A stretch of 43,274 nt of DNA, taken from contig JAUCBJ010004040.1 of assembly GCA_032718475.1 (NCBI GenBank), forward strand, positions 1 to 43,274, read 5' to 3'. The notes below the pieces were generated by a model. That model worked only from the letters and a program-made list of their open reading frames with translations. It was not told where the DNA came from and made no database searches. Of this stretch, positions 7,787 through 43,274 are shown in pieces. Every line of letters begins with the position of its first letter. Within the stretch, counting starts at the first letter, position 1. This DNA comes from Nemertoderma westbladi (taxonomy: Eukaryota > Animalia > Xenacoelomorpha). The translations under genes were made by a program, and so were the position numbers.

Positions 7787-7850
7787 GTGTCACTGAATTA
7801 CGACACTATATTCTGGGACATGATGTAGTTACTTTAGCAATTTAACGGGC

Positions 7851-17530: not shown

Positions 17531-17717
17531 TGCATCTCACCGTACCAATCGTTTAAAACATCACTGGTGAATAATTTTTCGATAACATTTCGTGATTCAT
17601 CCATAGCTCGGAAAAACTCACCAATTTTGAACTACAACCTGGACGTAAATGACACTTAAATCACATAGATGACATACTGTATCACTTAATTAATTAATTT
17701 ATTTATAAGAAAATATA

Positions 17718-18450
17718 ATGGGGACGTCTGATAAAGAAATTTCTCCTGACAAAAGTCTAACAGATAATCTACCGAGACATGGATGGAGGATCAAGGTATT
17801 GGTGACATTTTTGATGATATTTCAACTAATACCGGGTTGGTGCGTCAACCTACTGGAATCATTTTTCCCTATCGTTGTTGAAAAGCGTGGCTGGTCTAAG
17901 ACTCTAATCGGTTCCTTACTCGCCACCTACTCCGCGGTACAAATAATCATTTACATCGTTTTCCCCCATTCTATCAGTAATTGGGGTACTCGGAAATCGT
18001 TAGGGATATGCGGTATCATTGGAACGATCGCCCAGTTGCTTTTTGGGTTTGTGGAATATATTCCTAACAACGGAGGACACATATTCGCGTGTTTTTTCTT
18101 GCGAATCGTCGAAGGAATTGGACTCAACATCAGCTACACTTACTCCTACAATTTGTTAATGGAATTGATGCCAAACCACAGAAGTTTCTTGGCTAGCCTA
18201 TGTCTTGTGCTTGGCACTATTGGGTATACAATTTCGCCAGTTTTCGGATCCGTCGTTTTTTCTTCATTGGGCTTTGAGTTTCCATTTATTATATCGAGTC
18301 TGATGTTTCTCATTGTGGTCCTTTACTGCTGGTTTGATGGGCCGTCATACCTTCACGACCGACCCGAATGTAATGAGGAACGACCAACGTATCTGGCACT
18401 GCTTAAGAACCCGGGAATTGCAGACATCTATATTTTACATGCATATGAGG
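17718..18450 (+). CDS. MFS transporter (SLC18B1-like), N-terminal half
   Basis: Six hydrophobic helices; ESFFPIVVEKRGWSKTLIG, FFLRIVEGIG, LGTIGYTISPVFGSVVFSSLGFEFPFII, LLKNP; candidate phase-1 donor G|GTGAAG at 18450/18451. Confidence 0.85.
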
Positions 18451-19609
18451 GTGAAGTGGAATTTAACAACATTTTACGTAATTTAGTTTATTAATTAATC
18501 ACAGGTCCTTTTTTTAAATTGCTTTTTTTAATTGATTTAAATTTTTTAATAATGCCCCACGCATTATTGGAACAGAACGTGCATAATCAATCCAATCCAA
18601 ATGGTATAAATAGTATATTATCAGCGATTACTAAAAGAAGGCCAAATAATTAGAGTTGAGGACAGTGGCTGCATTTTTGCTATTGACAGATGGGAGGACA
18701 TGAGGACGTAAATTGCTGACATACAGGGTATCAGGTAGTTTCTGTATCTCAAGGTCTACCTTTTATCCGAGCCGCTATCGGTATGGTCATGCGCTAGACT
18801 TCCAACATGGGAGACTCGAGTTCGATCCCACCTGGACGTCATTGCCGAATTTGCTAAGCTGTACCCAACAAAAGTTATTCCTAAAAGTGTTACTGTGCCT
18901 TTTCTCAAAATTGCAATTTTTTGTGGGGTAAGTGGTCAAATTAGGCCGCGTTCACACTACCGAGTCAAAGTCAAAGTACCAATATTTTACCAATATTGAG
19001 TAGGAATAGGCCTATTTGTACCAATATGGTGTACCGATATCGTGTACAAATATTTTCTAACCAAAACAATAAACGGTCACTTTACAAATTGAGGGAACTA
19101 AGAAGGTTAGAGAGGCAGGCTTTTCTAACGAAAACAATAAACGGTCACTTTACCAATTGAGGGTCACTCTATAACCAAAAAAATCAGGCAGTCAAGCAAT
19201 AGGTACCGCTCTGCCGGTACGCAGCTGTAGAATGACAACTAGAAAGGTTGAAACAACGGTCCCCAAAGTAACAAGACTCCTGCTGTCCTAAGCTGCTCTA
19301 CATTCCGTACCTCAGTAGACCTTCCTACTGTATCTATTATCCTTACAACTACAGAAGCCTAACCAGTTCGCAGATTGGAAGAGCGCTACCGGTATCGTAC
19401 TAGTTTCCAGTCTTTGTTTTTTTTTTTTGGGGGGGGGGGGGGGGATTTTCCTAAGGGGGGAATAATTTCCTAGTAAAAATTGCCCGGGAGGCATATTCTA
19501 GGGGGAGCTGATTTCCCTGTGACACCGGTACGAGAGTAATGTAATGGCTTTTCAGTTTAGATTTGACCTGCTTTTATTTTCAAAATGTGTTACTTTTCAC
19601 TCCACCCTG
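18447..19609. mobile_element. Degenerate TIR-bounded insertion inside the MFS gene
   Basis: Left end AGGGTGAAGTGGAATTTAACAACATTTT matches the reverse complement of the right end AGGGTGGAGTGAAAAGTAACACATTTT. TGCATAT occurs on both flanks (18440-18446, 19615-19621). Confidence 0.7.
18769..18840 (+). repeat. tRNA-derived SINE head / tRNA pseudogene
   Basis: A-box-like tatcggtatgg, loop cttccaa and B-box gagttcgatcc; acceptor stem does not pair well. Confidence 0.4.
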
Positions 19610-19625
19610 CCTATTGCATATTAAG

Positions 19626-20182
19626 CGCTGGTGGTGTACTTTGTAATGGCAAATTATGCCGCCTATCTTCACAGCTACTATAACGTAACCCAGTATTACA
19701 TCGGAGTTGCGTTTATGATATACCCAATAACTGGAGGCTCTACCGGTTTTATATTGACGCTTTTCATGAATAAAATCAAGACAATTTATTCCACTTTAAT
19801 TGGCGTAATAATTATCATAGTGGCAATGCAACTAGTAGGGCCGACTGAGGTACTGGGTATCCCATCTTCACTAGCGACTTCCCTGAGTGCTATGGTCATC
19901 CTTGGGATAGGAGCAGCCTTAGTCCAAAACACGGGATTTGAAACGCAAGCTAGACTTGCGGTGAGTGTCAGCCATAGTCCCGACAACATAGATACCAGGG
20001 CAGTTCTCCAGCAAGCTCTAAGAATTTCGTTATCTCTTGGAAACATATTTGGCGCGGTTATCGGTGGAATTCTTAACGACTACTTCGGGTTCCAAAATGC
20101 AGCATCGATGCTCAGTCTGATCGGTTTGCCTTTTTTCTTCTTTCTTGTGGGATTATTTAATCGTGGTGATGTATACCAGTAA
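19626..20182 (+). CDS. MFS transporter (SLC18B1-like), C-terminal half
   Basis: YNVTQYYIGVAF, LVGP..LGIPSSL, MVILGIGAAL, SLGNIFGAVIGGILNDYFGFQNA; candidate acceptor TTAAG|CG at 19625/19626 in phase with the N-half; stop TAA at 20180-20182. Confidence 0.85.
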
Positions 20183-22730: not shown

Positions 22731-25700
22731 GCACGTCAATCATATGATAGAGTCACCGAGTCTGGGTATCAGTTCAATTATTAGCGCACGTCAATCATAT
22801 GATAGAGTCACCGAGTCTGGGTATCAGTTCAATTATTAGCGCACGTCAATCATATGATAGAGTCACCGAGTCTGGGTATTAGTTCAATTATTAGCGCACG
22901 TCAATCATATGATAGAGTCACCGAGTCTGGGTATCAGTTCAATTATTAGCGCACGTCAATCATATGATAGAGTCACCGAGTCTGGGTATCAGTTCAATTA
23001 TTAGCGCACGTCAATCATATGATAGAGTCACCGAGTCTGGGTATCAGTTCAATTATTAGCGCACGTCAATCATATGATAGAGTCACCGAGTCTGGGTATC
23101 AGTTCAATTATTAGCGCACGTCAATCATATGATAGAGTCACCGAGTCTGGGTATCAGTTCAATTATTAGCGCACGTCAATCATATGATAGAGTCACCGAG
23201 TCTGGGTATCAGTTCAATTATTAGCGCACGTCAATCATATGATAGAGTCACCGAGTCTGGGTATCAGTTCAATTATTAGCGCACGTCAATCATATGATAG
23301 AGTCACCGAGTCTGGGTATCAGTTCAATTATTAGCGCACGTCAATCATATGATAGAGTCACCGAGTCTGGGTATCAGTTCAATTATTAGCGCACGTCAAT
23401 CATATGATAGAGTCACCGAGTCTGGGTATCAGTTCAATTATTAGCGCACGTCAATCATATGATAGAGTCACCGAGTCTGGGTATTAGTTCAATTATTAGC
23501 GCACGTCAATCATATGATAGAGTCACCGAGTCTGGGTATCAGTTCAATTATTAGCGCACGTCAATCATATGATAGAGTCACCGAGTCTGGGTATCAGTTC
23601 AATTATTAGCGCACGTCAATCATATGATAGAGTCACCGAGTCTGGGTATCAGTTCAATTATTAGCGCACGTCAATCATATGATAGAGTCACCGAGTCTGG
23701 GTATTAGTTCAATTATTAGCGCACGTCAATCATATGATAGAGTCACCGAGTCTGGGTATCAGTTCAATTATTAGCGCACGTCAATCATATGATAGAGTCA
23801 CCGAGTCTGGGTATCAGTTCAATTATTAGCGCACGTCAATCATATGATAGAGTCACCGAGTCTGGGTATCAGTTCAATTATTAGCGCACGTCAATCATAT
23901 GATAGAGTCACCGAGTCTGGGTATCAGTTCAATTATTAGCGCACGTCAATCATATGATAGAGTCACCGAGTCTGGGTATCAGTTCAATTATTAGCGCACG
24001 TCAATCATATGATAGAGTCACCGAGTCTGGGTATTAGTTCAATTATTAGCGCACGTCAATCATATGATAGAGTCACCGAGTCTGGGTATCAGTTCAATTA
24101 TTAGCGCACGTCAATCATATGATAGAGTCACCGAGTCTGGGTATCAGTTCAATTATTAGCGCACGTCAATCATATGATAGAGTCACCGAGTCTGGGTATT
24201 AGTTCAATTATTAGCGCACGTCAATCATATGATAGAGTCACCGAGTCTGGGTATCAGTTCAATTATTAGCGCACGTCAATCATATGATAGAGTCACCGAG
24301 TCTGGGTATCAGTTCAATTATTAGCGCACGTCAATCATATGATAGAGTCACCGAGTCTGGGTATTAGTTCAATTATTAGCGCACGTCAATCATATGATAG
24401 AGTCACCGAGTCTGGGTATCAGTTCAATTATTAGCGCACGTCAATCATATGATAGAGTCACCGAGTCTGGGTATCAGTTCAATTATTAGCGCACGTCAAT
24501 CATATGATAGAGTCACCGAGTCTGGGTATCAGTTCAATTATTAGCGCACGTCAATCATATGATAGAGTCACCGAGTCTGGGTATCAGTTCAATTATTAGC
24601 GCACGTCAATCATATGATAGAGTCACCGAGTCTGGGTATCAGTTCAATTATTAGCGCACGTCAATCATATGATAGAGTCACCGAGTCTGGGTATCAGTTC
24701 AATTATTAGCGCACGTCAATCATATGATAGAGTCACCGAGTCTGGGTATCAGTTCAATTATTAGCGCACGTCAATCATATGATAGAGTCACCGAGTCTGG
24801 GTATCAGTTCAATTATTAGCGCACGTCAATCATATGATAGAGTCACCGAGTCTGGGTATCAGTTCAATTATTAGCGCACGTCAATCATATGATAGAGTCA
24901 CCGAGTCTGGGTATCAGTTCAATTATTAGCGCACGTCAATCATATGATAGAGTCACCGAGTCTGGGTATCAGTTCAATTATTAGCGCACGTCAATCATAT
25001 GATAGAGTCACCGAGTCTGGGTATCAGTTCAATTATTAGCGCACGTCAATCATATGATAGAGTCACCGAGTCTGGGTATCAGTTCAATTATTAGCGCACG
25101 TCAATCATATGATAGAGTCACCGAGTCTGGGTATCAGTTCAATTATTAGCGCACGTCAATCATATGATAGAGTCACCGAGTCTGGGTATCAGTTCAATTA
25201 TTAGCGCACGTCAATCATATGATAGAGTCACCGAGTCTGGGTATCAGTTCAATTATTAGCGCACGTCAATCATATGATAGAGTCACCGAGTCTGGGTATC
25301 AGTTCAATTATTAGCGCACGTCAATCATATGATAGAGTCACCGAGTCTGGGTATCAGTTCAATTATTAGCGCACGTCAATCATATGATAGAGTCACCGAG
25401 TCTGGGTATCAGTTCAATTATTAGCGCACGTCAATCATATGATAGAGTCACCGAGTCTGGGTATCAGTTCAATTATTAGCGCACGTCAATCATATGATAG
25501 AGTCACCGAGTCTGGGTATCAGTTCAATTATTAGCGCACGTCAATCATATGATAGAGTCACCGAGTCTGGGTATCAGTTCAATTATTAGCGCACGTCAAT
25601 CATATGATAGAGTCACCGAGTCTGGGTATCAGTTCAATTATTAGCGCACGTCAATCATATGATAGAGTCACCGAGTCTGGGTATCAGTTCAATTATTAGC

Positions 25701-25753
25701 GCACGTCAATCATATGATAGAGTCACCGAGTCTGGGTATCAGTTCAATTATTA
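22731..25753. repeat. 55-bp tandem repeat, about 55 copies
   Basis: Unit GCACGTCAATCATATGATAGAGTCACCGAGTCTGGGTATCAGTTCAATTATTAGC; only one recurrent C>T variant seen. Confidence 0.99.
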
Positions 25754-25920: not shown

Positions 25921-26020
25921 TCAATGTTTTCCTGGTGGTTTTTTCTTACAGCAATTTCCGCAGAGTTTTTCCTGTACAGTGGCGAAGAATCCCATAGGTC
26001 GACCAGGTTTATTTAGGTGT
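25921..26020 (-). CDS. ABCG: ABCG last coding exon ([33 protein letters not shown])
   Basis: Acceptor TTTGGTTTACAG|A, phase 2 matching the upstream donor AA|GTGAGT; open to TGA at 25921-25923. Confidence 0.75.
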
Positions 26021-29000
26021 CTGTAAACCAAAGTAATATGCTTTATTATAGTTTAATGATAGTAATATTAGATTATTAGAAAATTAACTGGTATATAATT
26101 CGAGCCTCCGGTGCGATGTTACCTTAAATAGGCTTTTAATAATAAACCCAAAAGTAATAATCGTCGTGCAAAAATCAGTGTTCAAAAATTTTATATTTCA
26201 TATATATTTTATATTTCTCTTAGAACAAAAGTAAATAAATAATTAAGACCCCAATAAAACCCCATTAAATATATTACAGTTGTCTGCAAATATGAAAAGC
26301 AAAAAGTTTATTACCGGTATTAATGTCCAGCTAACCTATATTCTTTCCTATACAGTAGTCAATAGATCTATAGCCTATTAAAATATTACACATTTCTGAA
26401 AAGGAGTAAGCAAAAACTAATAATAAACTTTTTGCTTTTCATATCTGCGGAAAACTGTAAAGCAAAAACTCAATGAAAGAACGAAGTGGCCCAAAATCCT
26501 AAAATACTGTCCATTATTGCTACTCACTTAAGTGCGAGGTATCCCAAATTCCTGAGCAGTAATCCTGATATCAAGAGGATTAGTATGTTACCCCATAATG
26601 GAAGGTCAGTGATTCCAAGTAGTTCTAGAACTTCTTTGTTGGTAACTATACCATTAGGATTGGTTGAACAGGACTCTGGGAACATGGTAAGATTTCTATC
26701 GATGTTACATCTAAATAAAATGTGTAAACATGATGTTATTATCGATATTATGGTCATTTATTCGACGTAGTCAAAATAATAATGAAAGTTTCAATTTTCA
26801 AGAATGTTGGCCTATGATTTACAAATCATTGTGTGTAAAATGAACTTTACATAGGGAGGGTGATATAAACTAATATTGGATGCTGAAAACCACCCTTATA
26901 AATGGACTAGAGTCAGACGGCCTATCTCTGTGCCATTAGACAATTATTGGGAAACTCATTTTCAAACATTGCAATCCAACGATGATGACCTGCTCGAACT
27001 CCGAGAGAGTGACTCCGATGGAGAGGTGAGGTGAGAGATGAAGTCAGCCAAAAAAACCCATTCCACATATACCCGCAATGGAGTTGTAGTCGCTAGGATC
27101 GGCAACGAAGGTGAAGTAATTCCTATTCGAAAATTCATCGACATAGCGAATCTTGCAGCCACTGTGGGATTTGCCCATGGGCGCCTAAACTCCACCAATG
27201 ACAGTTCTCCCTAAGAACCAAAGGGTTTCTTCTCGTTGAATTTTCTGTATCCCACTAATTATAGGGTCGGCCAACCAGTAACATAACCCAACTAATTAGT
27301 CATTTTTAATTAATCGTTCATGCATCAAATATTTCTCCCTGTAAGGGGGACCAGTATATACCTGTATATACCGTACTATACAATAACATAGGATACAGTT
27401 TTATTTTTGCAATATACGAAAATAACACAGGTACGGATATGAATTATAACTCAATTAGGGGAGTCATCTCAGCCTAAGGGGAGTCTTCTCAGCCTAAGGG
27501 GAGTGTTCTCAGCCTAGGCTGAGACGACTGAGGAGTGTTCTCAGCCTAGGCTGAGACGACTGAGGAGTGTTCTCAGCCTAGGCCGAGATGACTGGGGAGT
27601 CAGTTATCTCAGCCTTTTACACCGGCGACATGAATATTTACTTACTCAATAGTTAAATGATGAAGAATCAGTAAAGCAAGGATTAATTTTATTACAAAAT
27701 GATGCAGATCTAATTACTGAATGGTGTAAGAAATGGCGTATTATCTATATATATATATCGTATAAGCAATTATCTGCTATCCTATGTTATCTTATTAAAA
27801 TATATATTTCCCACGGTTCTTTCCCGGACACTTTAAAAAATGCCAAAGTTACCGATATAATCGATCGAAATAATTACCGTCCCATTTCTCTCTTGCCAAT
27901 TCTTAGTAAAATTTTTGAACAATTAATTAATTAATTAACTCGCAGCTTCTCTCCGACATACATATATTCTCGTTCCTTTCATCCTGCCAATATGGTTTCC
28001 GCCCCAAGACTAAAACCTCTTATGCCCTGTTATCCGTCATCGAAAATTTAAGCAGTACCTCGACAATAAAAATTATTCCTGTGTAATATATATTGATCTA
28101 AAAAGAGCTTTGTTTGATCTCGAATTTTCACATCCTATGAATATTGCATAGTTGTATTTGGATTAATTGTAAACTACGCATTAAGTAATACTAAATATAA
28201 CTTAGTAAAAAATAATCCAATCCACAAACTGAAAGTAACGAAAGTTCGCAATAATTGGAACAAAGATCGCAATAATAGGAACAAAGTTCGCAATAATAGG
28301 AACAAAGTTCGCAATAATAGGAACAAAGTTCGCAATAATAGGAACAAAGTTCGCAATAATAGGAACAAAGTTCGCAATAATAGGAACAAAGTTCGCAATA
28401 ATAGGAACAAAGTTCGCAATAATAGGAACAAAGTTCGCAATAATAGGAACAAAGTTCGCAATAATAGGAACAAAGTTCGCAATAATAGGAACAAAGTTCG
28501 CAATAATAGGAACAAAGTTCGCAATAATAGGAACAAAGATCGCAATAATATGAACAAAGTTCGCAATAATAGGAACAAAGTTCGCAATAATAGGAACAAA
28601 GTTCGCAATAATAGGAACAAAGTTCGCAATAATAGGAACAAAGTTCGCAATAATAGGAACAAAGTTCGCAATAATAGGAACAAAGTTCGCAATAATAGGA
28701 ACAAAGTTCGCAATAATAGGAACAAAGTTCGCAATAATAGGAACAAAGTTCGCAATAATAGGAACAAAGTTCGCAATAATAGGAACAAAGTTCGCAATAA
28801 TAGGAACAAAGTTCGCAATAATAGGAACAAAGATCGCAATAATAGGAACAAAGTTCGCAATAATAGGAACAAAGTTCGCAATAATAGGAACAAAGTTCGC
28901 AATAATAGGAACAAAGTTCGCAATAATAGGAACAAAGTTCGCAATAATAGGAACAAAGTTCGCAATAATAGGAACAAAGTTCGCAATAATAGGAACAAAG

Positions 29001-32000
29001 TTCGCAATAATAGGAACAAAGTTCGCAATAATAGGAACAAAGTTCGCAATAATAGGAACAAAGTTCGCAATAATAGGAACAAAGTTCGCAATAATAGGAA
29101 CAAAGTTCGCAATAATAGGAACAAAGCTCGCAATAATAGGAACAAAGTTCGCAATAATAGGAACAAAGTTCGCAATAATAGGAACAAAGTTCGCAATAAT
29201 AGGAACAAAGTTCGCAATAATAGGAACAAAGTTCGCAATAATAGGAACAAAGTTCGCAATAATAGGAACAAAGATCGCAATAATAGGAACAAAGTTCGCA
29301 ATAATAGGAACAAAGTTCGCAATAATAGGAACAAAGTTCGCAATAATAGGAACAAAGTTCGCAATAATAGGAACAAAGTTCGCAATAATAGGAACAAAGT
29401 TCGCAATAATAGGAACAAAGTTCGCAATAATTGGAACAAAGATCGCAATAATAGGAACAAAGATCGCAATAATTGGAACATAATTAATTATCCTTGAAAA
29501 TGTGATAGGAACATAGTTTGCAATAATAGGAACAAAGTTCGCAATAATAGGAACAAAGTTCGCAATAATTGGAACAAAGATCGCAATAATATGAACAAAG
29601 TTCGCAATAATAGGAACAAAGTTTGCAATAATAGGAACAAAGTTTGCAATAATAGGAACAAAGTTTGCAATAATAGGAACAAAGTTTGCAATAATAGGAA
29701 CAAAGTTCGCAATAATTGGAACAAAGATCGCAATAATATGAACAAAGTTCGCAATAATAGGAACAAAGTTCGCAATAATAGGAACAAAGTTTGCAATAAT
29801 AGGAACAAAGTTTGCAATAATAGGAACAAAGTTTGCAATAATAGGAACAAAGTTCGCAATAATTGGAACAAAGTTCGCAATAATATGAACAAAGTTCGCA
29901 ATAATAGGAACAAAGTTCGCAATAATAGGAACAAAGTTTGCAATAATAGGAACAAAGTTTGCAATAATAGGAACAAAGTTTGCAATAATAGGAACAAAGT
30001 TCGCAATAATTGGAACAAAGATCGCAATAATATGAACAAAGTTCGCAATAATAGGAACAAAGTTTGCAATAATAGGAACAAAGTTTGCAATAATAGGAAC
30101 AAAGTTTGCAATAATAGGAACAAAGTTCGCAATAATTGGAACAAAGATCGCAATAATATGAACAAAGTTCGCAATAATAGGAACAAAGTTCGCAATAATA
30201 GGAACAAAGTTTGCAATAATAGGAACAAAGTTTGCAATAATAGGAACAAAGTTTGCAATAATAGGAACAAAGTTCGCAATAATTGGAACAAAGTTCGCAA
30301 TAATATGAACAAAGTTCGCAATAATAGGAACAAAGTTCGCAATAATAGGAACAAAGTTTGCAATAATAGGAACAAAGTTTGCAATAATAGGAACAAAGTT
30401 TGCAATAATAGGAACAAAGTTCGCAATAATTGGAACAAAGATCGCAATAATATGAACAAAGTTCGCAATAATAGGAACAAAGTTTGCAATAATAGGAACA
30501 AAGTTTGCAATAATAGGAACAAAGTTCGCAATAATTGGAACAAAGATCGCAATAATAGGAACAAAGATCGCAATAATATGAACAAAGTTCGCAATAATAT
30601 GAACAAAGTTCGCAATAATAGGAACAAAGTTCGCAATAATAGGAACAAAGTTCGCAATAATTGGAACATAATTAATTATCCTTGAAAATGTGATAGGAAC
30701 ATAGTTTGCAATAATAGGAACAAAGTTCGCAATAATAGGAACAAAGTTCGCAATAATAGGAACAAAGTTTGCAATAATAGGAACAAAGTTTGCAATAATA
30801 GGAACAAAGTTTGCAATAATAGGAACAAAGTTCGCAATAATTGGAACAAAGTTCGCAATAATATGAACAAAGTTCGCAATAATAGGAACAAAGTTCGCAA
30901 TAATAGGAACAAAGTTTGCAATAATAGGAACAAAGTTTGCAATAATAGGAACAAAGTTCGCAATAATAGGAACAAAGCTCGCAATAATAGGAACAAAGTT
31001 CGCAATAATAGGAACAAAGTTCGCAATAATAGGAACAAAGTTTGCAATAATAGGAACAAAGTTCGCAATAATGGAACAAAGTCGCAATAATAGGAACAAA
31101 GCTCGCAATAATTGAACAAAGTCGCAATATATGAACAAAGTTCGCAATAATAGGAACAAAGTTCGCAATAATAGGAACAAAGATCGCAATAATTGGAACA
31201 TAATTAATTATCCTTGAAAATGTGATCGAGGAACATAGTTCGCAAGTAGAGGAACAAAGTTCGCAAAATATCAATAGAAAAAAAATTCGCGCCACCTTAA
31301 AATTAATATATTTACATTGTGTATGTAGTACAGTAAACACATTTACCGACCTGATATGATCACCACCATAATATTCCAGTTGGTTTAGCGCTTGATACGA
31401 ATAATGTATGATTGATAGAAATCGTATCCATTGGAGCCAGAAAGGCAGACGTCTGATAAAGAAACCACCAAGTAACATCGTAGAAACGGCAAATATAATA
31501 GCAACTGTTATTCCTTCCCGAATATTGACGCAGGAAGCGCTGATGACAATGCCTATTGCCTGTTGAAAACATTAATAACATAACAGAAGAATAAACCATA
31601 TAAAAAGGGAGGATACAATAGGAACATTAAAATATTTTACGTGCAAAAATAGTTTGAGTATCCATCAGTAACCATCAGACCGTAACTCGCCCGTGCCATA
31701 GCAACCCAGCTGCGTTCTACAGGACGCTTTGCCCACCTGCAAACCAGCTGTCTCATAGGTCGCCAACTAGAGTAGAGCATTGGTTGTCAATTTTCGGTTC
31801 CAAGAAATTCAATGGCAACCTCGCCAGTCGGCTGGCATATGAAACTCACGTCCCTGCTGATCAGTTCTACTATAGTAGTGGTTTTGGTATAAGACGAAAT
31901 TTCCGAAATTGTACAAACTACTGTATCTTATACCATGAACCCGGCGCAGGGCGCAGCATCCTGGTCTATCAAGAGATCTGGTACCCTCTGCAGTAAGAGC

Positions 32001-35000
32001 CAAACAGGGATTGTCGTATAGTACAGTACATAACCTATTCTAATTAATTTGTGGTTTAGGTTGAATTCAACTATACCGCAACCTATGCTTATAGTGAAAT
32101 CCTGGTATTATTCACATGAGGCAAGCTGAATATAATTCACACGGGACATATAGGGGACTGGTACTATATAGGCGCAACTGGCGACTATAGGCACAACAGG
32201 TGAGACTATAAAAGACTGGCACTATAGGTAGAACAGGTGGCACTGTTATAGGCACAACAGGGTGGCAATATCCGCGACTGGCACAAGGTTGCTCGAAAAC
32301 GTTAATGAAAAGTAGAATGTGTGTCAGGAGTGATCAAGCTCTGCCCAAATTTTGTAGGATTTCATTAGACGACTACAAAAATATAGTGGGTGGGCCGAAT
32401 CGCCCCCCCCCCCCCCCCCCCCCCCCCCCCCCAGTGGTGCTAATGGTCAAAACACCCCAGTGGTAATAGGGTTAATAAGCTTAACGTTATTTTATATTCC
32501 GACTAAACGCTGTATAAATTTGACATTGTTGTGTCCTTAGGCCAGACACTTTGGACATTAGTGCTAACTCATCGGTATATAATGGGAACCTTGCTTTGCT
32601 GAGTTAGTAATAATAAAGGCGATTTGAGTAGGCTGAACGTAGAATAAGCCTATATATATATAAATAATTAATATTATTATCGTTATAATATAAAGTTAGA
32701 ATTATTTTATATACCACACGATTAGGCCATTATTTACTAGAGCTAAGCACCATCGAACAAATGGTTATTACCTGAAATGTTAAAGCGTTGAAGAGAACTA
32801 CCATCCAGGTACCAAAGAAGAGACCAACGTATGCTGCGTCGGTAGAAGCATAAAGACCAACGACCCAGTAAACAATGCAGACAAACACAGTGGGAAGAAG
32901 TACGATAAGTGGAGCTTCGCTCGTGAGTTTGGCTAAATAATAGGCTGATAGTCGGTAGGAACCGCTGGAACGTTCTTTGTTGATCACCACACGTTCGGTG
33001 GGAACTAGGGGAAAAAATACAAATCTTGTTAGTTTTTATGCCCTTTTAATTTTAATAACTGCCGTTAGTTGATAATTCCCTACACTAATATTACACTTTG
33101 GTTGATAATTTATGCAGTGACGTTACAAAAGGATGGAGGACAGCACTCACACGACATCAGAGCATTCATCATTGGGTGCATCGACCACGTGACATTAAAG
33201 AAGAACAAACAACCAGCTCTATCGAATACAGACTCCTCCTCCCATGGCAATTGAAACCATACCAGACTACAAATTGCTGTTATGATGACCTAAAATAAAT
33301 AAAAAACATCTAGAAACAATTTTAAATCAATCTAAAAAGAAGTATACTCGTGCATGTATGTTACAATGTGGAATAACTGCATATTGTAAAGTGCTACTAA
33401 ATAATTCTAGTCTATCCTAAATGTTCGTCATGTTACGGGGCCCGTAGGCATATTTCCAATTGGGGTGTCGTTTCAGCCTATGGAAGTGTTTCTGGGCTTC
33501 TAATTGGCTGTTCCTTCAATAAGCTCACCTCATTGGCTAACACTCTCCCATAGCCAAAAGGTGTGTCGGTTCAGCCCAATTGCCAGAAGGGGTTTGTTTG
33601 TATGTGAATTTGTAGGCAGATACTGATGAGCGCAAGGCTGTCAGGAGCTTGGGCTTTGAATGTTTCTATCTGTCAGTACAGCAGTACCGGTACTGGCAGA
33701 CAGTTTCTCCAAGCGACATCCCTTTTGGCAATTAGGCTGAACCGACACACCTTTTGGCTATGGGAGAGTGTTAGCCAATGAGATGAGCTTATTTGATGGA
33801 TCAGCCAATTAGAAGCCAAAAATTCTTCCATAGGCTCTTGGCTCTTGTCTTGCTCTAGCATGTCGCTTTGTTCCATAGGCTGAAACGACACCCCAATTGC
33901 AAATATGCGGCCCGTAGCGCTTATTAATAAAACATTATCCACGCTCACAGTGTCAAACCAAAGGATACAGAGGGAATGAATTACATAGTATACAATTGCA
34001 TACTTGGTCCAGTTATATATAACTTTGGTGATCTTCTAATTTAATAAATAAAATAAATCACTCACATACTCTATGATTACGAATTTATTTAGAATAATTG
34101 AAAGATTTTGTTTCACTGATCTCTTGGACAATGTTGTAAACTGTGTCCAGAATGACGTGGGCCATTTCGCTTCAACGATCTGGGGCTCCTGCAAAGAACA
34201 TGAAAAATAAATACTAAATAATTAGAAGTATTGAACTTAAAAAAAAGGCGGGGCTAGCTGAGTTGGTTGAGCGCCGAGCTAACAATCTATTGGTTATTGA
34301 TTGAACACAAGTGTCATTAGTCACTACAAATGTCAGCACCGGTAAATCTGGTCAGTGACAATTTAGTTATTTAGTTTTTTAATCACTGTTTCTTTATTTG
34401 GGTTTAGTTAAATAGTTAGTTTGTTAAACTCGAGATCCATACATATAATGCATATATATAATGCATACATATAAAGTGCTCAATGAGTTAAATCTGGTCG
34501 TTTAGGGCTAGGGTCAAAAATTCATGCACCTGTCTTCGTTGGCAGAGTCAGAAACCTCGGGTGCGACAGACATATTGTAAAGGTGCCCTTTTGATTGAAA
34601 TCTTTTCTTTAATGGTTGTTCTTCCGGTGAACTAGCTTATATAGGTAAATACAGAATGATAAATGTTTAACTTCACTATTACCCATATGTACTACATTAC
34701 TCAAACTAACGGTCTCTTCAGCTGGGAGAACAACAACATCGACTTCCTGTTTCTCTTCATTATCTGACGGTAGTTTTAGCTCCGGGTCCTTCTCCCGAAT
34801 CGTATTGAAACCCTCAACAATAGTGGTTTCTACCTCTTTAGATTCACGAAGTTGTTCCACTATAAATAAAACGTCCCAAATTTTATCAGAAAGATCGTTT
34901 CCTAATTACGAACCTTTCTTACTGACATGCATGGAGTGGACTACTTACTTTTAGTGTAAACCTGATGCTTAAAAACAATTCCTTTTATGTACCGCACGTC

Positions 35001-37551
35001 GGTCGTCCTAAAATTGTCTACTTTAAATAAACTACTTACACCATGGTTTCATCTAGAGGTTGACAATATTGTGAAACTCCTCATATGACTCGTTTTGGGG
35101 CCTTCGCGCAGAAAGATGTCTGTGATCTTTTTATCATAGAGTTTTCGTTCGGGTGCAAATAGTCAAAAGTGAGGAAAAAATTATAGTTTGGAATTCACGG
35201 TCCTTTGGTCAGAAGTTACATAAAATATCTTATATTATGATTTTGGGTTCTATCTATCTATAATTAAAATAATAAACCATTTAGGGATCACGAACTATCA
35301 GAAATCTATCACAAGGACCTGATGCAGGGAACCATATTGTTCAAGATGGCTGTGGATACAGCTGGGCAAATCCCGCGGCTTCCTGATTGGTCCCGTGGAT
35401 ACAGCTGGGAAAATCCCGCAGCTTCCTGATTGGTACTGTGGATACAGCTGGGAAAATCCCGCAGCTTCCTGCTTGGTCCTGTGGATACAGCTGCGCGCAA
35501 ATCCCGCAGCTTCCTGCTTGGTCCTGTGGATACAGCTGGGCAAATCCCGCAGCTTCCTGATTGGTCCTGTGGATACAGCTGGGCAAATCCCGCAGCTTCC
35601 TGATTGGTCCTGTGGATACAGCTGGGAAAATCCCACAGCTTCCTGATTGGTCCTGTGGATACAGCTGGGCAAATCCCGCAGCTTCCTGCTTGGTCGTGTG
35701 GATACAACTGGGCAAATCCCGCGGCTTCCTGATTGGTCCTGTGGATACGGCTGGGCAAATCCCGCAGCTTCCTGATTGGTCCTGTGGATACAGCTGGGCA
35801 AATCCCACAGCTTCCTGCGTGGTCCTGTCGATACAGCTGGGCAAATCCCGCGGCTTCCAGATTGGTCGTCCTGTGGATACAGCTGGGCAAATCCCGCAGC
35901 TTCCTGATTGGTACTGTGGATACAGCTGGGCAAATCCCGCAGCTTCCTGAGTGGTCCTGTGGATACAGCTGGGCAAATCCCGCGGCTTCCTAATTGGTCC
36001 TGTGGATACAACTGGGCAAATCCCGCGGCTTCCTGATTGATAATTTCGCCAACCATAATATTAATATAATAATAGGCCTACAACTAGTTTTTGTAAATAA
36101 CATCTGGAAGTTAATTAAAGTAAACAGTTCATTTTTTCTCCAGCCATTAGGATTTTGCAGTCTGACGACATATTTCCAGTGCGGTCCCCCAGTCAGTACT
36201 ATAAGGTACTACTCCAGAGGAAACTCCATCATCATTTAGCTACCGAGAGAGAGAGAGAGATGCGTCCTGGCTAGTCCCTTTCAAGTATTTGTGCGGAAAC
36301 AAAAACTGCCCTAGCCCTCATGCGGGGATCGAACCCACGAACTCCGAGAGATGTGAATCCAATGTATCCACTACACCAATGAGGAGTTCCAATATTTATT
36401 ACGGAAAGTAAATATATATTCTTCGATAGAATTTGTCCGATACGAGCAAAATGGTCATTCACTTCGCAAGCTTTATCAAAAAACGCATGAATTCCATTAC
36501 AATTCATTATTATTTAAAAAGAAAACAAAAACTTACTAATAAAGTCGGCAGGGTTGTAATTGGGTTTACAAGGAACACCAACATCTTTAAAGAAGTCAAT
36601 AATTTCTGTACCGGGACCATAGTAAGCCACTTGTCCATTGCTAAGCAACAACAGTTTATCGAACATCTGTAATGTATTAAAACACAGTATAATAAGTACA
36701 ACAATGTCCAATATAAAAGGTCGCTGTCAGACTGGTGACTCAGAAGACCATACGTTTGAAAACGAATTTATTGATTTAGTTTAAACAGTGCTTGAGTAAA
36801 TTTGAAGTGAAAAATATAGACGCAAAGTAATTAAAGATTATGCTTCTATTGTCTTGACTGTCAGAAGGTTGATACACTACACAACCGCACGGGATATAAA
36901 GTAGAAAACTATTTTTGACTGGAAGGTTGATGGAAAACGGTACCGGTAATACACGATTGTAAGGATGCTGGATACAGGATATTAGTTAACTCACCAGAAA
37001 CTAAAAATAATTATTAATTTAGCAATTAGTATACAACATCAAATATTTTAGTAGAAAATTAATGGGTAAAGAAGGGTTACATAGAAAAACTACCAACCTC
37101 GAATATTTGACTTGAAGGCTGATGGATACTGGTTATAACAGTTTTTCCCGATTCGCGTGTGAACCGCTTAAGGGTGGTCATAAGTTGGAGGGCAGTGGAT
37201 GAGTCTAAACCAGTAGTTGGTTCCTGTTGGTCAAGATGAAAACAAATATGTGTTGTAAAATAGGGGGGTGGCTGGTGGTTAGAAACTTTATGATAAGAAA
37301 GAATCATTATGATATAACTATATTAATAAGTAATTAAGGTGCACCAAAAATAACACTTTACAGTAAGTGAAACGCCCTGTAATACTGTATGCTAGAGGCA
37401 ATACTTCCAAAGAACTGGACATTCATTAACATAATGTCAAAAGCACTCACATCGAGAAGCAGCAAGGAAGGGTCGGTTAATAACTCGCTGGCTATATTAG
37501 TTCTTTTCTTTTCGCCTCCGGAAAGTCCCCTAACCATGAAATCACCGATAA
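25921..37551 (-). CDS. ABCG: ABCG-family (white-type) half ABC transporter, ten 3' exons; 5' exons including Walker A lie beyond the window
   Basis: Exons 37451-37551, 37098-37223, 36537-36666, 34711-34859, 34066-34188, 33151-33289, 32772-33004, 31351-31559, 26528-26710, 25921-26020. All are GT-AG and phase-compatible. Signature [10 protein letters not shown], Walker B LLLLD-EPTTGLD, H-loop SIHQPSS, NPADF and ABC2 membrane motif [17 protein letters not shown]. Confidence 0.95.
26528..26710 (-). CDS. ABCG: ABCG exon (extracellular loop and last TM helix)
   Basis: TTTTATTTAG|A ... [27 protein letters not shown]|GTGAGT. Confidence 0.9.
27458..27626. repeat. MITE fragment with tandem TCTCAGCCTAGGCTGAGA palindromes (family of 7692-7786)
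   Basis: Repeated ggagtgttctcagcctaggctgagacgact units and the terminus acaccgg. Confidence 0.75.
27640..28115 (+). pseudogene. Degenerate CR1/L2-like LINE RT fragments in an ABCG intron
   Basis: [16 protein letters not shown] (~27692), [43 protein letters not shown]; broken by indels. Confidence 0.8.
28241..31266. repeat. 21-bp tandem repeat (AATAATAGGAACAAAGTTCGC), about 140 copies, with higher-order structure, intronic
   Basis: Directly visible; lies between ABCG exons 31351-31559 and 26528-26710. Confidence 0.99.
31351..31559 (-). CDS. ABCG: ABCG exon (AIGIVISAS...[36 protein letters not shown])
   Basis: TTTTCAACAG|GCA ... ATC AG|GTCGGT (phase 2). Confidence 0.93.
31760..32020 (-). pseudogene. 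Short RTE-like LINE 3' fragment, intronic
   Basis: [16 protein letters not shown] resembles WALTAEGTKSLDGTFTRMLRRVH at 14153-14602. Confidence 0.75.
32150..32286. repeat. Degenerate ~19-21 bp tandem repeat (GGCACTATAGGCACAACAG-like)
   Basis: About 7 diverged copies of actataggc.caac.gg. Confidence 0.6.
32772..33004 (-). CDS. ABCG: ABCG exon ([26 protein letters not shown]...ALTFQ)
   Basis: CCCTAG|TT ... CAG|GTAATA. Confidence 0.95.
33151..33289 (-). CDS. ABCG: ABCG exon ([46 protein letters not shown])
   Basis: TTTATTTTAG|GTC ... T|GTGAGT. Confidence 0.93.
33434..33916. mobile_element. MITE with ~155-bp TIRs, intronic
   Basis: 33434-~33591 is the reverse complement of ~33720-33916 (cattggctaacactctcccatagccaaaaggtgtgtcggttcagcc vs ggctgaaccgacacaccttttggctatgggagagtgttagccaatg); ends TACGGG...CCCGTA. 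Confidence 0.9.
34066..34188 (-). CDS. ABCG: ABCG exon ([41 protein letters not shown])
   Basis: TTCTTTGCAG|GAG ... TAT|GTGAGT. Confidence 0.92.
34711..34859 (-). CDS. ABCG: ABCG linker exon ([17 protein letters not shown]...PAEET)
   Basis: TTTATTTATAG|TG in phase 1; donor ACC|GTTAGT is the best phase-0 candidate, but alternatives exist. Confidence 0.8.
35350..36039. repeat. 43-bp tandem repeat, about 16 copies, intronic
   Basis: Unit TGTGGATACAGCTGGGCAAATCCCGCAGCTTCCTGATTGGTCC. Confidence 0.98.
36311..36388 (-). repeat. tRNA-derived SINE head, intronic
   Basis: A box TGGTGTAGTGG and B box GGTTCGATCC at tRNA-like spacing; cloverleaf incomplete. Confidence 0.6.
36537..36666 (-). CDS. ABCG: ABCG exon ([17 protein letters not shown]...NYNPADFI)
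   Basis: TTACAG|ATG ... A|GTAAGT. Confidence 0.95.
37098..37223 (-). CDS. ABCG: ABCG exon ([11 protein letters not shown]...[11 protein letters not shown])
   Basis: CAACAG|GAA ... GAG|GTTGGT. Confidence 0.95.
37451..37551 (-). CDS. ABCG: ABCG exon ([33 protein letters not shown])
   Basis: TTTTCTGCAG|TT (phase 1) ... GAT|GTGAGT. Confidence 0.95.
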
Positions 37552-37691
37552 CTGCAGAAAATAAGGTAAAAAACAATCACACTTCTAGGGCAAATCAACC
37601 CAGTAAACCGATACAGAGGTAACCAATTTGAAAAGTGAATCAAGGTCGAATCACAGTCTTCATTGCATCCAATATAATAAACCAGCTGATA

Positions 37692-40600
37692 ATCCAAGCT
37701 ATCGATGATACAGTACAGAGGCCCAGATCCAAGCTATCGATGATACAGTACAGAGGCCCAGATCCAAGCTATTGATGATACAGTTAACAACTTACTTGTG
37801 TTTCTACAGAGACCCAGATCCAAGCTATCGATGATACAGTTAACAACTTACTTGTGTTCCTACAGAGACCCAGATCCAAGCTATCGATGATACAGTTAAC
37901 AACTTACTTGTGTTTCTACAGAGACCCAGACCCAAGCTATCGATGATACAGTTAACAACTTACTTGTGTTTCTACAGAGGCCCAGATCCAAGCTATCGAT
38001 GATACAGTTAACAACTTACTTGTGTTTCTACAGAGACCCAGACCTAAGCTATCGATGATACAGTTAACAACTTACTTGTGTTTCTACAGAGACCCAGATC
38101 CAAGCTATCGATGATACAGTTAACAACTTACTTGTGTTTCTACAGAGACCCAGATCCAAGCTATCGATGATACAGTTAACAACTTACTTGTGTTTCTACA
38201 GAGACCCAGATCCAAGCTATCGATGATACAGTTAACAACTTACTTGTTTGTTTCTACAGAGACCCAGATCCAAGCTATCGATGATACAGTTAACAACTTA
38301 CTTGTGTTTCTACAGAGACCCAGATCCAAGCTATCGATGATACCGTTAACAACTTACTTGTGTTTACAGAGACCCAGATCCAAGATATCGATGATACAGT
38401 TAACAACTTACTTGTGTTTCTACAGAGACCCAGATCCAAGCTATCGATGATACCGTTAACAACTTACTTATGTTTCTACAGAGACCCAGATCCAAGCTAT
38501 CGATGATACAGTTAACAACTTACTTGTGTTTCTACAGAGACCCAGATCCAAGCTATCGATGATACAGTTAACAACTTACTTGTGTTTCTACAGAGACCCA
38601 GATCCAAGCTATCGATGATACAGTTAACAACTTACTTGTGTTTCTACAGAGACCCAGATCTAAGCTATCGATGATACAGTTAACAACTTACTTGTGTTTC
38701 TACATAGACCCAGATCCAAGCTATCGATGATACAGTACAGAGACCCAGACCCAAGTTATCGATGATACAGTTAACAACTCACTTGTGTTTCTACAGAGAC
38801 CCAGATCCAAGCTATCGATGATACAGTTAACAACTTACTTGTGTTTCTACAGAGACCCAGATCCAAGTTATCGATGATACAGTTAACAACTCACTTGTGT
38901 TTCTACAGAGACCCAGATCCAAGCTATCGATGATACAGTTAACAACTTACTTGTGTTTCTACAGAGACCCAGATCCAAGCTATCGATGATACCGTTAACA
39001 ACTTACTTGTGTTTCTACAGAGGCCCAGATCCAAGTTATCGATGATACAGTTAACAACTTACTTGTGTTTCTACAGAGACCCAGATCCAAGCTATCGATG
39101 ATACAGTTAACAACTTACTTGTGTTTCTACAGAGACCCAGATCCAAGCTATCGATGATACCGTTAACAACTTACTTGTGTTTACAGAGACCCAGATCCAA
39201 GATATCGATGATACAGTTAACAACTTACTTGTGTTTCTACAGAGACCCAAATCCAAGCTATCGATGATACAGTTAACAACTTACTTGTGTTTCTACATAG
39301 ACCCAGATCCAAGCTATCAATGATACAGTTAACAACTTACTTGTGTTTCTACAGAGACCCAGATCCAAGCTATTGATGATACAATTAACAACTTACTTGT
39401 GTTTCTACCGAGACCCAGATCCAAGCTATCGATGATACCGTTAACAACTTACTTGTGTTTCTACAGAGACCCAGATCCAAGTTATCGATGATACAGTTAA
39501 CAACTTACTTGTGTTTCTACAGAGACCCAGATCCAAGCTATTGATGATACAGTTAACAACTTACTTGTGTTTCTACAGAGACCCAGATCCAAGCTATCGA
39601 TGATACCGTTAACAACTTACTTGTGTTTCTACAGAGACCCAGATCCAAGTTATCGATGATACAGTTAACAACTTACATGTGTTTCTACCGAGACCCAGAT
39701 CAAAGCTATCGATGATACAGTTAACAACTTACTTGTGTTTCTACAGAGGCCCAGATCCAAGCTATCGATGATACAGTTAACAACTTACATGTGTTTCTAC
39801 AGAGACACAGATCCAAGCTATCGATGATACAGTTAACAACTTACTTGTGTTTCTACAGAGACCCAGATCCAAGTTATCGATGATACAGTTAACAACTTAC
39901 TTGTGTTTCTACAGAGACCCAGATCCAAGCTATCGATGATACAGTTAACAACTTACTTGTGATTCTACAGAGGCCCAGATCCAAGCTATCGATGATACCA
40001 TTAACAACTTACTTGTGTTTCTACAGAGACCCAGATCCAAGCTATCGATGATACAGTTAACAACTTACTTGTGTTTCTACAGAGACCCAGATCCAAGCTA
40101 TCGATGATACAGTTAACAACTTACTTGTTTGTTTCTACAGAGGCCCAGACCCAAGCTATCGATGATACAGTTAACAACTTACTTGTGTTTCTACAGAGAC
40201 CCAGATCCAAGCTATCGATAATACAGTTAACAACTTACTTGTGTTTCTACAGAGACCCAGATCCAAGCTATCGATGATACAGTTAACAACTTACTTGTGT
40301 TTCTACAGAGACCCAGATCCAAGCTATCGATGATACAGTTAACAACTTACTTGTGTTTCTACAGAGACCCAGATCCAAGCTATCGATGATACAGTTAACA
40401 ACTTACTTGTGTTTCTACAGAGACCCAGATCCCAGCTATCCATGATACAGTTAACAACTTACTTGTGTTTCTACCGAGACCCAGATCCAAGCTATCGATG
40501 ATACAGTTAACAACTTACTTGTGTTTCTACAGAGACCCAGATCCAAGCTATCGATGATACAGTTAACAACTTACTTGTGTTTCTACAGAGACCCAGATCC

Positions 40601-43274
40601 AAGCTATCGATGATACAGTTAACAACTTACTTGTGTTTCTACAGAGGCCCAGATCCAAGCTATCGATGATACAGTTAACAACTTACTTGTGTTTCTACAG
40701 AGACCCAGATCCAAGCTATCGATGAAACAGTTAACAACTTACTTGTGTTTCTACAGAGACCCAGATCCAAGCTATCGATGATACAGTTAACAACTTACTT
40801 GTGTTTCTACCGAGACCCAGATCCAAGCTATCGATGATACAGTTAACAACTTACATGTGTTTCTACAGAGACACAGATCCAAGCTATCGATGATACAGTT
40901 AACAACTTACTTGTGTTTCTACAGAGACCCAAATCCAAGCTATCGATGATACAGTTAACAAATTACTTGTGTTTCTACAGAGACCCAGATCCAAGCTATC
41001 GATGATACAGTTAACAACTTACTTGTGTTTCTACAGAGACCCAGATCCAAGCTATCGATGATACAGTTAACAACTTACATGTGTTTCTACAGAGACACAG
41101 ATCCAAGCTATCGATGATACAGTTAACAACTTACTTGTGTTTCTACAGAGACCCAAATCCAAGCTATCGATGATACAGTTAACAAATTACTTGTGTTTCT
41201 ACAGAGACCCAGACCCAAGCTATCGATGATACAGTTAACAACTTACTTGTGTTTCTACAGAGACCCAGATCCAAGCTATCGATGATACAGTTAACAACTT
41301 ACTTGTGTTTCTACAGAGACCCAGACCCAAGCTATCGATGATACAGTTAACAACTTACTTGTGTTTCTACAGAGACCCAGATCCAAGCTATCGATGATAC
41401 AGTTAACAACTTACTTGTGTTTCTACAGAGACCCAGATCCAAGCTATCGATGATACAGTTAACAACTTACTTGTGTTTCTACAGAGACCAAGATCCAAGC
41501 TATCAATGATACAGTTAACAACTTACTTGTGTTTCTACAGAGACCCAGATCCAAGCTATTGATGATACAGTTAACAACTTACTTGTGTTTCTACAGAGAC
41601 CCAGATCCAAGTTATCGATGATACAGTTAACAACTTACTTGTGTTTCTACAGAGACCCAAATCCAAGCTATCGATGATACAGTTAACAACTTACTTGTGT
41701 TTCTACAGAGACCCAAATCCAAGCTATCGATGATACAGTTAACAACTTACTTATGTTTCTACAGAGACCCAGATCCAAGCTATCGATGATACAGTACAGA
41801 GGCCCAGATCCAAGCTATCGATGATACAGTTAACAACTTAATTGTGTTTCTATAGAGACCCAGATCCAAGCTATCGATGATACAGTTAACAACTTACTTG
41901 TGTTTCTACAGAGACCCAGATCCAAGCTATCGATGATACAGTTAACAACTTACTTGTGTTTCTACAGAGACCCAGATCCAAGCTATCGATGATACAGTAC
42001 AGAGACCCAGATCCAAGCTATCGATGATACCGTTAACAACTTACTTGTGTTTCTAAAGAGACCCAGATCCAAGCTATCGATGATACAGTTAACAACTTAC
42101 TTGTGTTTCTACAGAGACCCAGATCCAAGCTATTGATGATACAGTTAACAACTTACTTGTGTTTCTACAGAGACCCAGATCCAAGCTATCGATGATACAG
42201 TTAACAACTTACTTGTGTTTCTACAGAGGCCCAGATCCAAGCTATCGATGATACCGTTAACAACTTACTTATGTTTCTACAGAGGCCCAGATCCAAGCTA
42301 TCGATAATACAGTTAACAACTTACTTGTGTTTCTACAGAGACCAAGATCCAAGCTATCGATGATACAGTTAACAACTTACTTGTGTTTCTACAGAGACCC
42401 AGATCCAAGCTATCGATGATACAGTTAACAACTTACTTGTGTTTCTACAGAGACCCAGATCCAAGCTATCGATGATACAGTTAACAACTTACTTGTGTTT
42501 CTACAGAGACCCAGATCCAAGCTATCGATGATACAGTTAACAACTTACTTGTGTTTCTACAGAGACCCAGATCCAAGCTATATTGATGATACAGTTAACA
42601 ACTTACTTGTGTTTCTACAGAGACCCAGATCCAAGCTATTGATGATACAGTTAACAACTTACTTGTGTTTCTACAGAGACCCAGATCCAAGCTATCGATG
42701 ATACAGTTAACAACTTACTTGTGTTTCTAAAGAGACCCAGATCCAAGCTATCGATGATACAGTTAACAACTTACTTGTGTTTCTACAGAGACCCAGATCC
42801 AAGCTATTGATGATACAGTTAACAACTTACTTGTGTTTCTACAGAGACCCAAATCCAAGCTATCGATGATACAGTTAACAACTTACTTGTGTTTCTAAAG
42901 AGACCCAGATCCAAGCTATCGATGATACAGTTAACAACTTACTTGTGTTTCTACAGAGACCCAGATCCAAGCTATTGATGATACAGTTAACAACTTACTT
43001 GTGTTTCTACAGAGACCCAGATCCAAGCTATCGATGATACAGTTAACAACTTACTTGTGTTTCTACAGAGACCCAGATCCAAGCTATCGATGATACAGTT
43101 AACAACTTACTTGTGTTTCTACAGAGACCCAGATCCAAGCTATCGATGATACAGTTAACAACTTACTTGTGTTTCTACAGAGACCCAGATCCAAGCTATC
43201 GATGATACAGTTAACAACTTACTTGTGTTTGTTTCTACAGAGACCCAGATCCAAGCTATCGATGATACCGTTAA
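37692..43274 (-). repeat. 56-bp tandem repeat, about 100 copies, apparently derived from the ABCG exon end plus 5' splice site; runs off the window
   Basis: Minus-strand unit ATCATCGATAGCTTGGATCTGGGTCTCTGTAGAAACACAA|GTAAGTTGTTAACTGT = IIDSLDLGLCRNT + A, donor, and intron start. Confidence 0.95.

Follow-up and report, generated by a model that had tools for sequence, protein, structure and literature searches.

Tandem repeats that reiterate an exon/intron junction have been described in five human genes and in lancelet (PMC1557585, PMC3087553). Intron 7 of human F7 carries a 37-bp VNTR of 5-9 copies, whose first unit spans the exon end and the donor and is followed by identical pseudo-donors; in the part of that study available, the most upstream donor is the only one used, a preference that was tested (Borensztajn et al. 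2006, PMC1557585). The same portion of the article describes minisatellites of IFI6 (6-16) intron 2, CBS intron 13, LMNB2 and PDGF intron 4, where the junction is likewise reiterated in tandem in the following intron, in 10-26 copies; IFI6 and CBS use two further donors, and LMNB2 and PDGF the first only (PMC1557585). The 'mirage' repeats of the lancelet Adh3 and globin genes are also invertebrate tandem duplications across an exon/intron boundary in a minisatellite-prone genome, and are given in the accessible part of their description as length-unstable, with splicing reportedly undisturbed and the first donor used (PMC3087553). A more distant system is chicken LL2R, which stands alone as a non-coding unit of 160 kb and consists of 446-bp repeats derived from a retrotransposon promoter; its transcribed, donor-rich array recruits splicing factors into a local condensate, according to the sections of the preprint available (bioRxiv 10.64898/2026.03.19.712899).

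Here we describe an array of this kind in an intron of an ABCG gene of Nemertoderma westbladi. The window, the whole stretch of DNA analysed, is 43,274 nt long and ends inside the array. The unit of the array joins 51 nt of exon to 5 nt of intron, whereas that of F7 has 4 nt of exon and 33 nt of intron, and at least 95 donors are present, compared with the copy numbers given above for F7 and the other four human genes (PMC1557585, as far as available). Lancelet mirages occur on both donor and acceptor sides, with 3-6 units reported for the globin case, in contrast to a single donor-side array of more than 5.5 kb here (PMC3087553, in the part accessible). LL2R has more than 5 predicted donors per 2 kb, compared with about 34 in the present array, which is intronic and exon-derived; the condensate effect is reported for LL2R (bioRxiv 10.64898/2026.03.19.712899, available sections). 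The novelty implied by an earlier note on this DNA is not supported: the repeat class is already known, and size alone stands out. In the open-licence literature we found no published array of comparable size and no satellites derived from exons. A UPF3A VNTR is reportedly a related case; a literature search on it found none.

Structure of the array

The following array features were placed in the window.

37692-43274, minus strand: tandem array, about 101 units in the window; 56-bp unit of 51 nt exon end plus GTAAG
37700-37769, minus strand: downstream edge of the array, with two 35-bp deletion units that lack the donor
37791-37795, minus strand: intron-derived GTAAG (5 nt) of the last donor-bearing unit, the most downstream donor copy (joint 37551-37796, CT..AC on the plus strand)
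37796-37846, minus strand: exon-derived 51 nt of the last donor-bearing unit, VNCIIDSLDLGLCRNT plus 1 base (fit to a spliced contig, 1 difference in 51)
38722-38756, 41781-41815 and 41984-42018, minus strand: further donor-less 35-bp units

The units lie head to tail with a period of 56 bp, within the 10-160 bp of splice-junction minisatellites, and continue to the right end of the window, the upstream side of the gene, so that the full length of the array probably exceeds the part inside the window. Among the 100 intervals between 101 anchors, 90 are of 56 bp, 3 of 58, 2 of 54, 1 of 60 and 4 of 35, with a fifth 35-mer in the terminal piece. The 90 56-mers are 98.4% identical to their own consensus, which 35 of them match exactly. 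The GT is kept in 95 of the 96 units with a donor slot and GTAAGT in 91 of these 96, and GTRAG occurs 93 times on the minus strand and not at all on the plus strand; five units, those of 35 bp, have the donor deleted. The earlier note had counted about 100 intact donors: the array and its period stand, and the intact donors number 95 among the 101 units in the window. Thirteen variant types of the unit occur more than once, and some of them carry two linked changes, a pattern that block duplication gives.

Five long arrays together make up 29.8% of the window, and GTRAG is absent from the other four. An Rfam match was not found in 26000-43274, and an exact search with 31 nt of the unit against metagenome contigs gave 0 matches.

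The host gene

Judged by its sequence, the host gene is an ABCG half-transporter, and the array lies on its strand. We modelled its downstream part with the features below.

37552-37691, minus strand: remainder of the array-bearing intron, 140 nt of unique sequence with pyrimidine tract and acceptor (X1 DNA contig 37502-37721, 0 differences)
37451-37551, minus strand: ABCG exon with signature motif and Walker B start (PF00005, E=1.3e-5; spliced joints at both ends)
37098-37223, minus strand: ABCG exon with D-loop and H-loop (spliced joints at both ends)
36537-36666, minus strand: ABCG exon, end of the nucleotide-binding domain (a joint on one side and, on the other, a loose end that fits the following exon; PF19055 match below cut-off, E=1.9e-4)
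34683-34859, minus strand: linker exon (start from a spliced contig's loose end, end inferred from frame)
34556-34635, minus strand: linker exon, predicted from the reading frame only
34066-34188, minus strand: exon with the start of the membrane domain (homology and frame)
33151-33289, minus strand: membrane-domain exon (homology and frame)
32772-33004, minus strand: membrane-domain exon (homology and frame; alone without a Pfam match)
31351-31559, minus strand: membrane-domain exon (PF01061, E=2.4e-10)
26524-26710, minus strand: last coding exon, to the stop codon (homology and frame)

As the earlier note had proposed, these ten downstream exons can be modelled as one open frame, of 517 aa, which aligns end to end with its best relative at 43% identity; identities to animal relatives are 35-43%, and no full-length relative above 43% was found. 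A model without the exon at 34556-34635 was rejected, as the frame shifts. PF00005 and then PF01061 were both found above cut-off, placing the nucleotide-binding domain before the ABC2 membrane domain, and the order of signature motif, D-loop, H-loop and ABC2 membrane domain is that of ABCG half-transporters. The Walker A exons lie outside the window. The closest solved structure to the best relative is that of plant ABCG25. Protein searches using a membrane exon gave 0 of 11 candidates, and another search one weak match.

Spliced RNA and the identity of the unit

One public run, X4, is labelled 'DNA?' and was treated as RNA because its contigs skip three GT..AG joints; its sample differs from that of the DNA runs and may or may not carry the array. 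In a 138-nt X4 contig (depth 1471), 37796 is spliced to 37551 at GT..AG; the contig matches one unit over 51 nt and has 37 nt of unique sequence upstream of it. Since a single copy of the unit thus stands between unique upstream sequence and exon 37551, the unit corresponds to the true exon end, which supports the origin claimed in the earlier note. The split of the unit into 40 exonic and 16 intronic nucleotides was wrong: because the spliced contig fits the 51 nt of 37796-37846, the bases placed after GTAAGT as intron are exon, leaving 51 nt of exon plus GTAAG, with 91% of the unit exon-derived. The phase 1 junction to exon 37551-37451 is as claimed. The translation of the unit agrees with this assignment, as, among all 112 registers compared with a profile built from 16 homologous ABCG segments, the frame of VNCIIDSLDLGLCRNT scores best, at a value reached by 0 of 2000 shuffles (1 of 2000 without the two registering columns); such a comparison had been suggested in the earlier note.

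Between the junction contig and the window there are 3 differences in 50 positions and 1 in 51, so that the letters of the contig are probably those of another, more abundant copy of the gene; the contig merges copies, and its source sample may lack the array. X4 also contains a spliced contig identical to the window's gene copy (0 differences over 165 nt, depth 536) and a divergent form (5 differences in 82, depth 1180). The depth of the junction contig lies between 1180 and 1716, the sum of both forms, which hints weakly that both may share part of it. X4 cover on the array is fully explained by this single contig. No unit-to-unit junction contig was found among the X4 contigs placed, and this was not counted as evidence, since contigs drop rare forms.

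The array in genomic DNA and the other gene copies

Three DNA runs from two studies were used (X1, X2 and X3, with X3 from the X1 sample). Unit contigs placed on the array number 24 in X1, 61 in X2 and 1071 in X3; in X2, one 54-nt unit contig has a depth of 4829, compared with 21-22 for single-copy introns. Lower bounds from unit k-mers are 7, 261 and 356, respectively, rough values from summed depth that differ even within one sample, X1 being uninformative. Depth nevertheless suggests more than 200 units. The orientation of the array and its place in the gene agree with a first unit at the authentic exon end; the DNA contigs listed include none joining the array to a unique upstream exon, the array's upstream end being outside the window. 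The unique intron at 37563-37690 is covered in X1 and not in X2 or X3, a gap that was not counted because X3 is from the same sample as X1, which covers it.

There are at least three close gene copies, as three intron types were found behind exon 37451, and in a close copy the corresponding intron is short and lacks the array (X2 contig of 211 nt; X3 loose end of 82 nt). Among the 14 exon differences listed between copies, 9 are synonymous, and R/K or T/A exchanges make up the remaining 5.

Constraint and folding

Conservation of the donors does not exceed that of the remaining unit: of 27 distinct variants, 5 fall in donor positions -3..+6, where a share of 9/56 is expected (p=0.79). A coding tandem repeat or tandem exon array was rejected, as 56 is not a multiple of 3, stops occur from the third donor on, and unit variants fall 7/7/10 by old codon position. 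Masking of the donors by RNA structure was likewise rejected, with four units folding no better than shuffles (z=+1.55). A micro-exon with an acceptor within the unit seems unlikely, as on inspection the AGs have no convincing pyrimidine tract.

Discussion

We consider it likely that the array is a splice-donor minisatellite, spliced at its first copy, with the rest removed as intron, and probably neutral. One local duplication may have taken in 51 exon-end bases and the first five intron bases, and the array would have grown from it through slippage and unequal exchange. The array would then begin directly at the true exon; the cell would splice at the first unit copy and remove the remaining copies with the intron, giving normal mRNA from array-bearing alleles, and it is from such splicing that neutrality would follow. 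We infer that later donors are kept silent by first-donor choice, through 5'-to-3' scanning or exon definition, the choice that was tested in human F7 (PMC1557585, available part). Rare later-donor transcripts would be cleared by nonsense-mediated decay. The length of the array is several times that of the human cases, in which the scanning model was tested on 5-9 copies only.

Use of the second and third donors in IFI6 and CBS (PMC1557585, in the part available) means that silence of the later donors is not guaranteed. The array might lower or tune the output of this copy, with later-donor transcripts degraded and copy number acting as a dosage dial among three close ABCG copies, a reading we regard as unlikely. 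Every later donor gives a premature stop, the arithmetic of the earlier note being correct (donor 2 leads to a TAG in the next exon, donor 3 and later ones to a TAA inside the array), and the window-type transcript contig has a depth of 536 against 1180 for the other form in X4, although contig depth is a poor measure of expression. However, the donors carry no excess conservation, donor-less units exist, the X4 contig runs directly from one unit copy to the acceptor, and in the F7 minigene, as far as the available text goes, the only later donors to compete were those with a perfect match to the consensus (PMC1557585). The tuning by nonsense-mediated decay offered in the earlier note thus finds no support here: the donors show no extra conservation, and the array is missing from a close gene copy.

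It is quite unlikely that the unit also occurs elsewhere, in a larger or dispersed satellite, with most depth-counted copies outside this intron. The rough k-mer lower bounds of about 260 (X2) and about 360 (X3) exceed the 101 units in the window, but the array is cut by the end of the window, and greater length at this single place would account for the excess; no DNA loose end with foreign flanks was found at the unit among those listed, where 30-letter overlaps may be missed.

We also doubt strongly that the array has disabled or detached this copy, as a young pseudogene or 5'-truncated duplicate, with the normal junction RNA coming from array-free copies. The position of the array's upstream end beyond the window and the 4 differences between junction contig and window would fit such a copy, whose loss could be tolerated given the number of close copies. 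Against it, the ten downstream exons form one open frame in the model, a spliced contig matches this copy without difference over 165 nt, and the differences between copies are, as listed above, synonymous or R/K or T/A.

With about 34 donors per 2 kb in an expressed pre-mRNA, and perhaps several hundred near-identical ones in all, the array could also act as a U1 snRNP sponge or local splicing condensate and as a length-variable dial on the output of this ABCG copy relative to its array-free sisters. We hold this to be improbable; if true, it would be a regulatory element arising by amplification of a gene's own splice junction. That the assembler inflated a short repeat is extremely improbable and largely ruled out, for although the array reaches the window end and its exact length rests on the assembly, it is present in DNA of two studies at unit contig depths far above single-copy introns, and its variants are recurrent substitutions.

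As a splice-donor minisatellite, the array is likely harmless, and it differs from the repeats of this type in human and lancelet genes by its unusual length. It offers an extreme natural test of first-donor selection, with at least 95 and probably more than 200 near-identical donors compared with 5-26 in the human cases. The close gene copy, whose intron at this place is short and free of the array, provides a built-in control. Clean splicing of array-bearing alleles would mean that the choice of the first donor extends, in an invertebrate-like genome, to ten times the scale tested; otherwise, transporter dosage would be set by array length.

The unit is the end of the host gene's own exon

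The tandem array lies on the minus strand of an ABCG half-transporter gene, within the intron that precedes exon 37551-37451. Minus-strand exons match PF00005 (E=1.3e-5) and PF01061 (E=2.4e-10), and the exon part of the unit forms, with ten downstream exons, a single open frame of 517 aa in our model, in which the linker exon 34556-34635 was placed by frame alone. Over its full length the model can be aligned to its best relative, with 43% identity; among named relatives, animal ABCG proteins come first (36-41%), and the nearest solved structure to the best relative is plant ABCG25. A search of 38 proteins gave 20 signature motifs in 19 proteins. The profile was made from the 16 signature segments with an upstream C-x-x-T/S motif, leaving out the four that lacked it; this motif lies 8 residues before the signature in 16/16, and the spacing in the model is identical. 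The unit frame VNCIIDSLDLGLCRNT ranks first among 112 registers on this profile, and its score was matched by 0 of 2000 shuffles (1 of 2000 once the two registering columns were omitted).

Contigs from public runs were compared with the window. X1, X2 and X3 are DNA runs; X4, labelled 'DNA?', was treated as RNA because three introns in a row, each with GT..AG ends, are missing from its contigs:

36666-37098, minus strand, intron
37222-37450, minus strand, intron
37551-37796, minus strand, intron bearing the array

The X4 contig across the last of these (138 nt, depth 1471) matches 37502-37551 and then 37796-37846, and runs 37 letters past 37846 into sequence unlike the array, where a reading of 30 listed letters keeps the frame open. 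The true upstream exon therefore ends in unit sequence, as the earlier note had proposed. That note's view that the unit spans the gene's junction holds, but its division into about 40 nt of exon and 16 nt of intron does not: the bases following GTAAGT, counted there as intron, are exon and code for V-N-C, and the unit is 51 nt of exon plus GTAAG.

Structure and extent of the array

Tandem Repeats Finder and a fixed-anchor split both recovered the array as first described. The former reported a 56-bp period that starts near 37749 and continues to the window end, and 35-bp units at 37692-37784. The latter placed 101 anchors, giving 100 intervals of 56 bp (90), 58 bp (3), 54 bp (2), 60 bp (1) and 35 bp (4). 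The terminal piece contains one more 35-mer, making five, all of them deletion units without a donor. The 56-mers have a mean identity of 98.4% to their own consensus, which 35 of the 90 match exactly. CAA|GTAAGT is present in 83 of 96 donor-slot units, GTAAGT is kept in 8 further units and GT with another change in 4, and GT is lost in 1. At 37692-37769, beyond two donor-less 35-mers, the array stops mid-unit in exon-derived sequence, so that the original 5' intron sequence is not next to the last donor.

Unit contigs matching the array are plentiful in DNA of two studies (24 in X1, 61 in X2 and 1071 in X3), which indicates that the array is not an assembly artefact; X1 is possibly the source of the assembly, and X2 is the independent study. 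One 54-nt unit contig in X2 has a depth of 4829, versus 21-22 for single-copy intron contigs. Summed contig depth is not copy number; corrected for contig overlap, it puts the units at roughly 261 or more in X2 and 356 or more in X3. These lower bounds are indications and not counts, since X1 gives one of only 7 though from the same sample as X3. The true array is probably longer than the part in the window. It is notable for its length, with 95 GT donors within the window and probably more than 200 in all, and also for its exon-rich unit.

Close copies of the gene

Three different intron sequences, the window's and two loose-end types both contained in X3, lie behind exon 37451, which implies that close copies, or alleles that have diverged strongly, number three or more. 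Across 37445-37562 in X1-X4, these at least three ABCG copies have exons about 95% identical, unalignable introns and similar depth in X3; they may be recent paralogues with exon homogenisation or the product of a polyploid genome. Nine of the 14 listed exon differences between copies are synonymous. A 211-nt X2 contig matches 37445-37562, and 21 of its other 93 letters match the exon end; by deduction, any intron in it would be no longer than about 62 nt and free of the array.

X4 is another sample, whose window-type allele may or may not carry the array. At the next junction it contains a spliced form identical to the window across 165 nt (depth 536) and a second with 5 differences in 82 nt (depth 1180). 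The junction contig into the unit differs from the window at 3 of 50 and 1 of 51 positions, which makes the commoner form the probable source of its letters. The contig's depth of 1471 could be reached if about 59 of 108 words were common to both forms, a fit that hints weakly at both passing through it.

Consequences of the repeated donors

Stop arithmetic agrees with the earlier claim that only the first donor can yield protein: use of donor 2 adds 56 nt and leads to a TAG in the next exon, and donor 3 and every later donor, in-frame ones included, lead to a TAA within the array.

Distinct variants fall at donor positions -3 to +6 in 5 of 27 cases, against an expected share of 9/56 (p=0.79), in a test with little power because the array is so young. 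Variants per old codon position number 7, 7 and 10, the donor is deleted in five units, and four units showed no folding advantage over shuffled sequence (z=+1.55). Thirteen types of variant unit occur more than once, some of them carrying linked changes, the pattern that block duplication would leave. Variant spread, donor loss, recurrence and folding are signs of drift rather than function.

Other arrays and elements in the window

Five long arrays make up 12,878 bases (29.8%) of the window. GTRAG is absent, on either strand, from the other four:

7839-8460, tandem array, 20 bp unit
22731-25753, tandem array, 55 bp unit, 99% matched over 55 copies
28241-31200, tandem array, 21 bp unit
35350-36039, tandem array, 43 bp unit

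We infer from this that the genome readily amplifies local seeds, one of which chanced to span a donor.

Two of these four arrays are housed in ABCG gene introns, and the 20-bp array closes at 8458-8478 with a single unit in inverted orientation (95% complementary). Other elements were observed:

8670-9017, plus strand, short K/R/G/S-rich frame, protamine-like by eye, with no Pfam match above cut-off
15483-16163 and 14156-14779, minus strand, reverse transcriptase fragments (PF00078, E=2.6e-6; PF20049, E=2.6e-4), a putative LINE-type remnant, both matches under cut-off
17709-18491, plus strand, Major facilitator superfamily ORF (PF07690, E=8e-22)
about 19600-20180, probable second coding stretch, by eye only
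33448-33908, nested inverted repeats in an ABCG intron (outer arms 38 nt, 97%; inner arms 74 nt, 96%), forming a MITE-like foldback element some 460 bp long
36160-36360, high-copy interspersed element with many loose ends (summed depth in X1 reaching 93,558), SINE-like by eye

Relation to known splice-junction repeats

Borensztajn et al. 2006 (PMC1557585) described the F7 intron 7 VNTR. By their account, two of the 25 pseudo-sites of IFI6 are also used, as are two in CBS (15-20 units); LMNB2 (10-15) and PDGF (16-18) use the authentic donor only, and in minigenes the choice falls on the most upstream functional donor. Lancelet 'mirages' straddle exon/intron boundaries, reportedly leaving splicing undisturbed (PMC3087553). 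The RNA of the donor-rich chicken repeat LL2R is described as able to gather splicing factors (bioRxiv 10.64898/2026.03.19.712899, a 2026 preprint); by analogy, a bold and improbable reading would have the ABCG array do the same. The array belongs to an already described class, the earlier note was right to derive it from the junction of its host gene, and it is most likely neutral, with splicing from the first donor.
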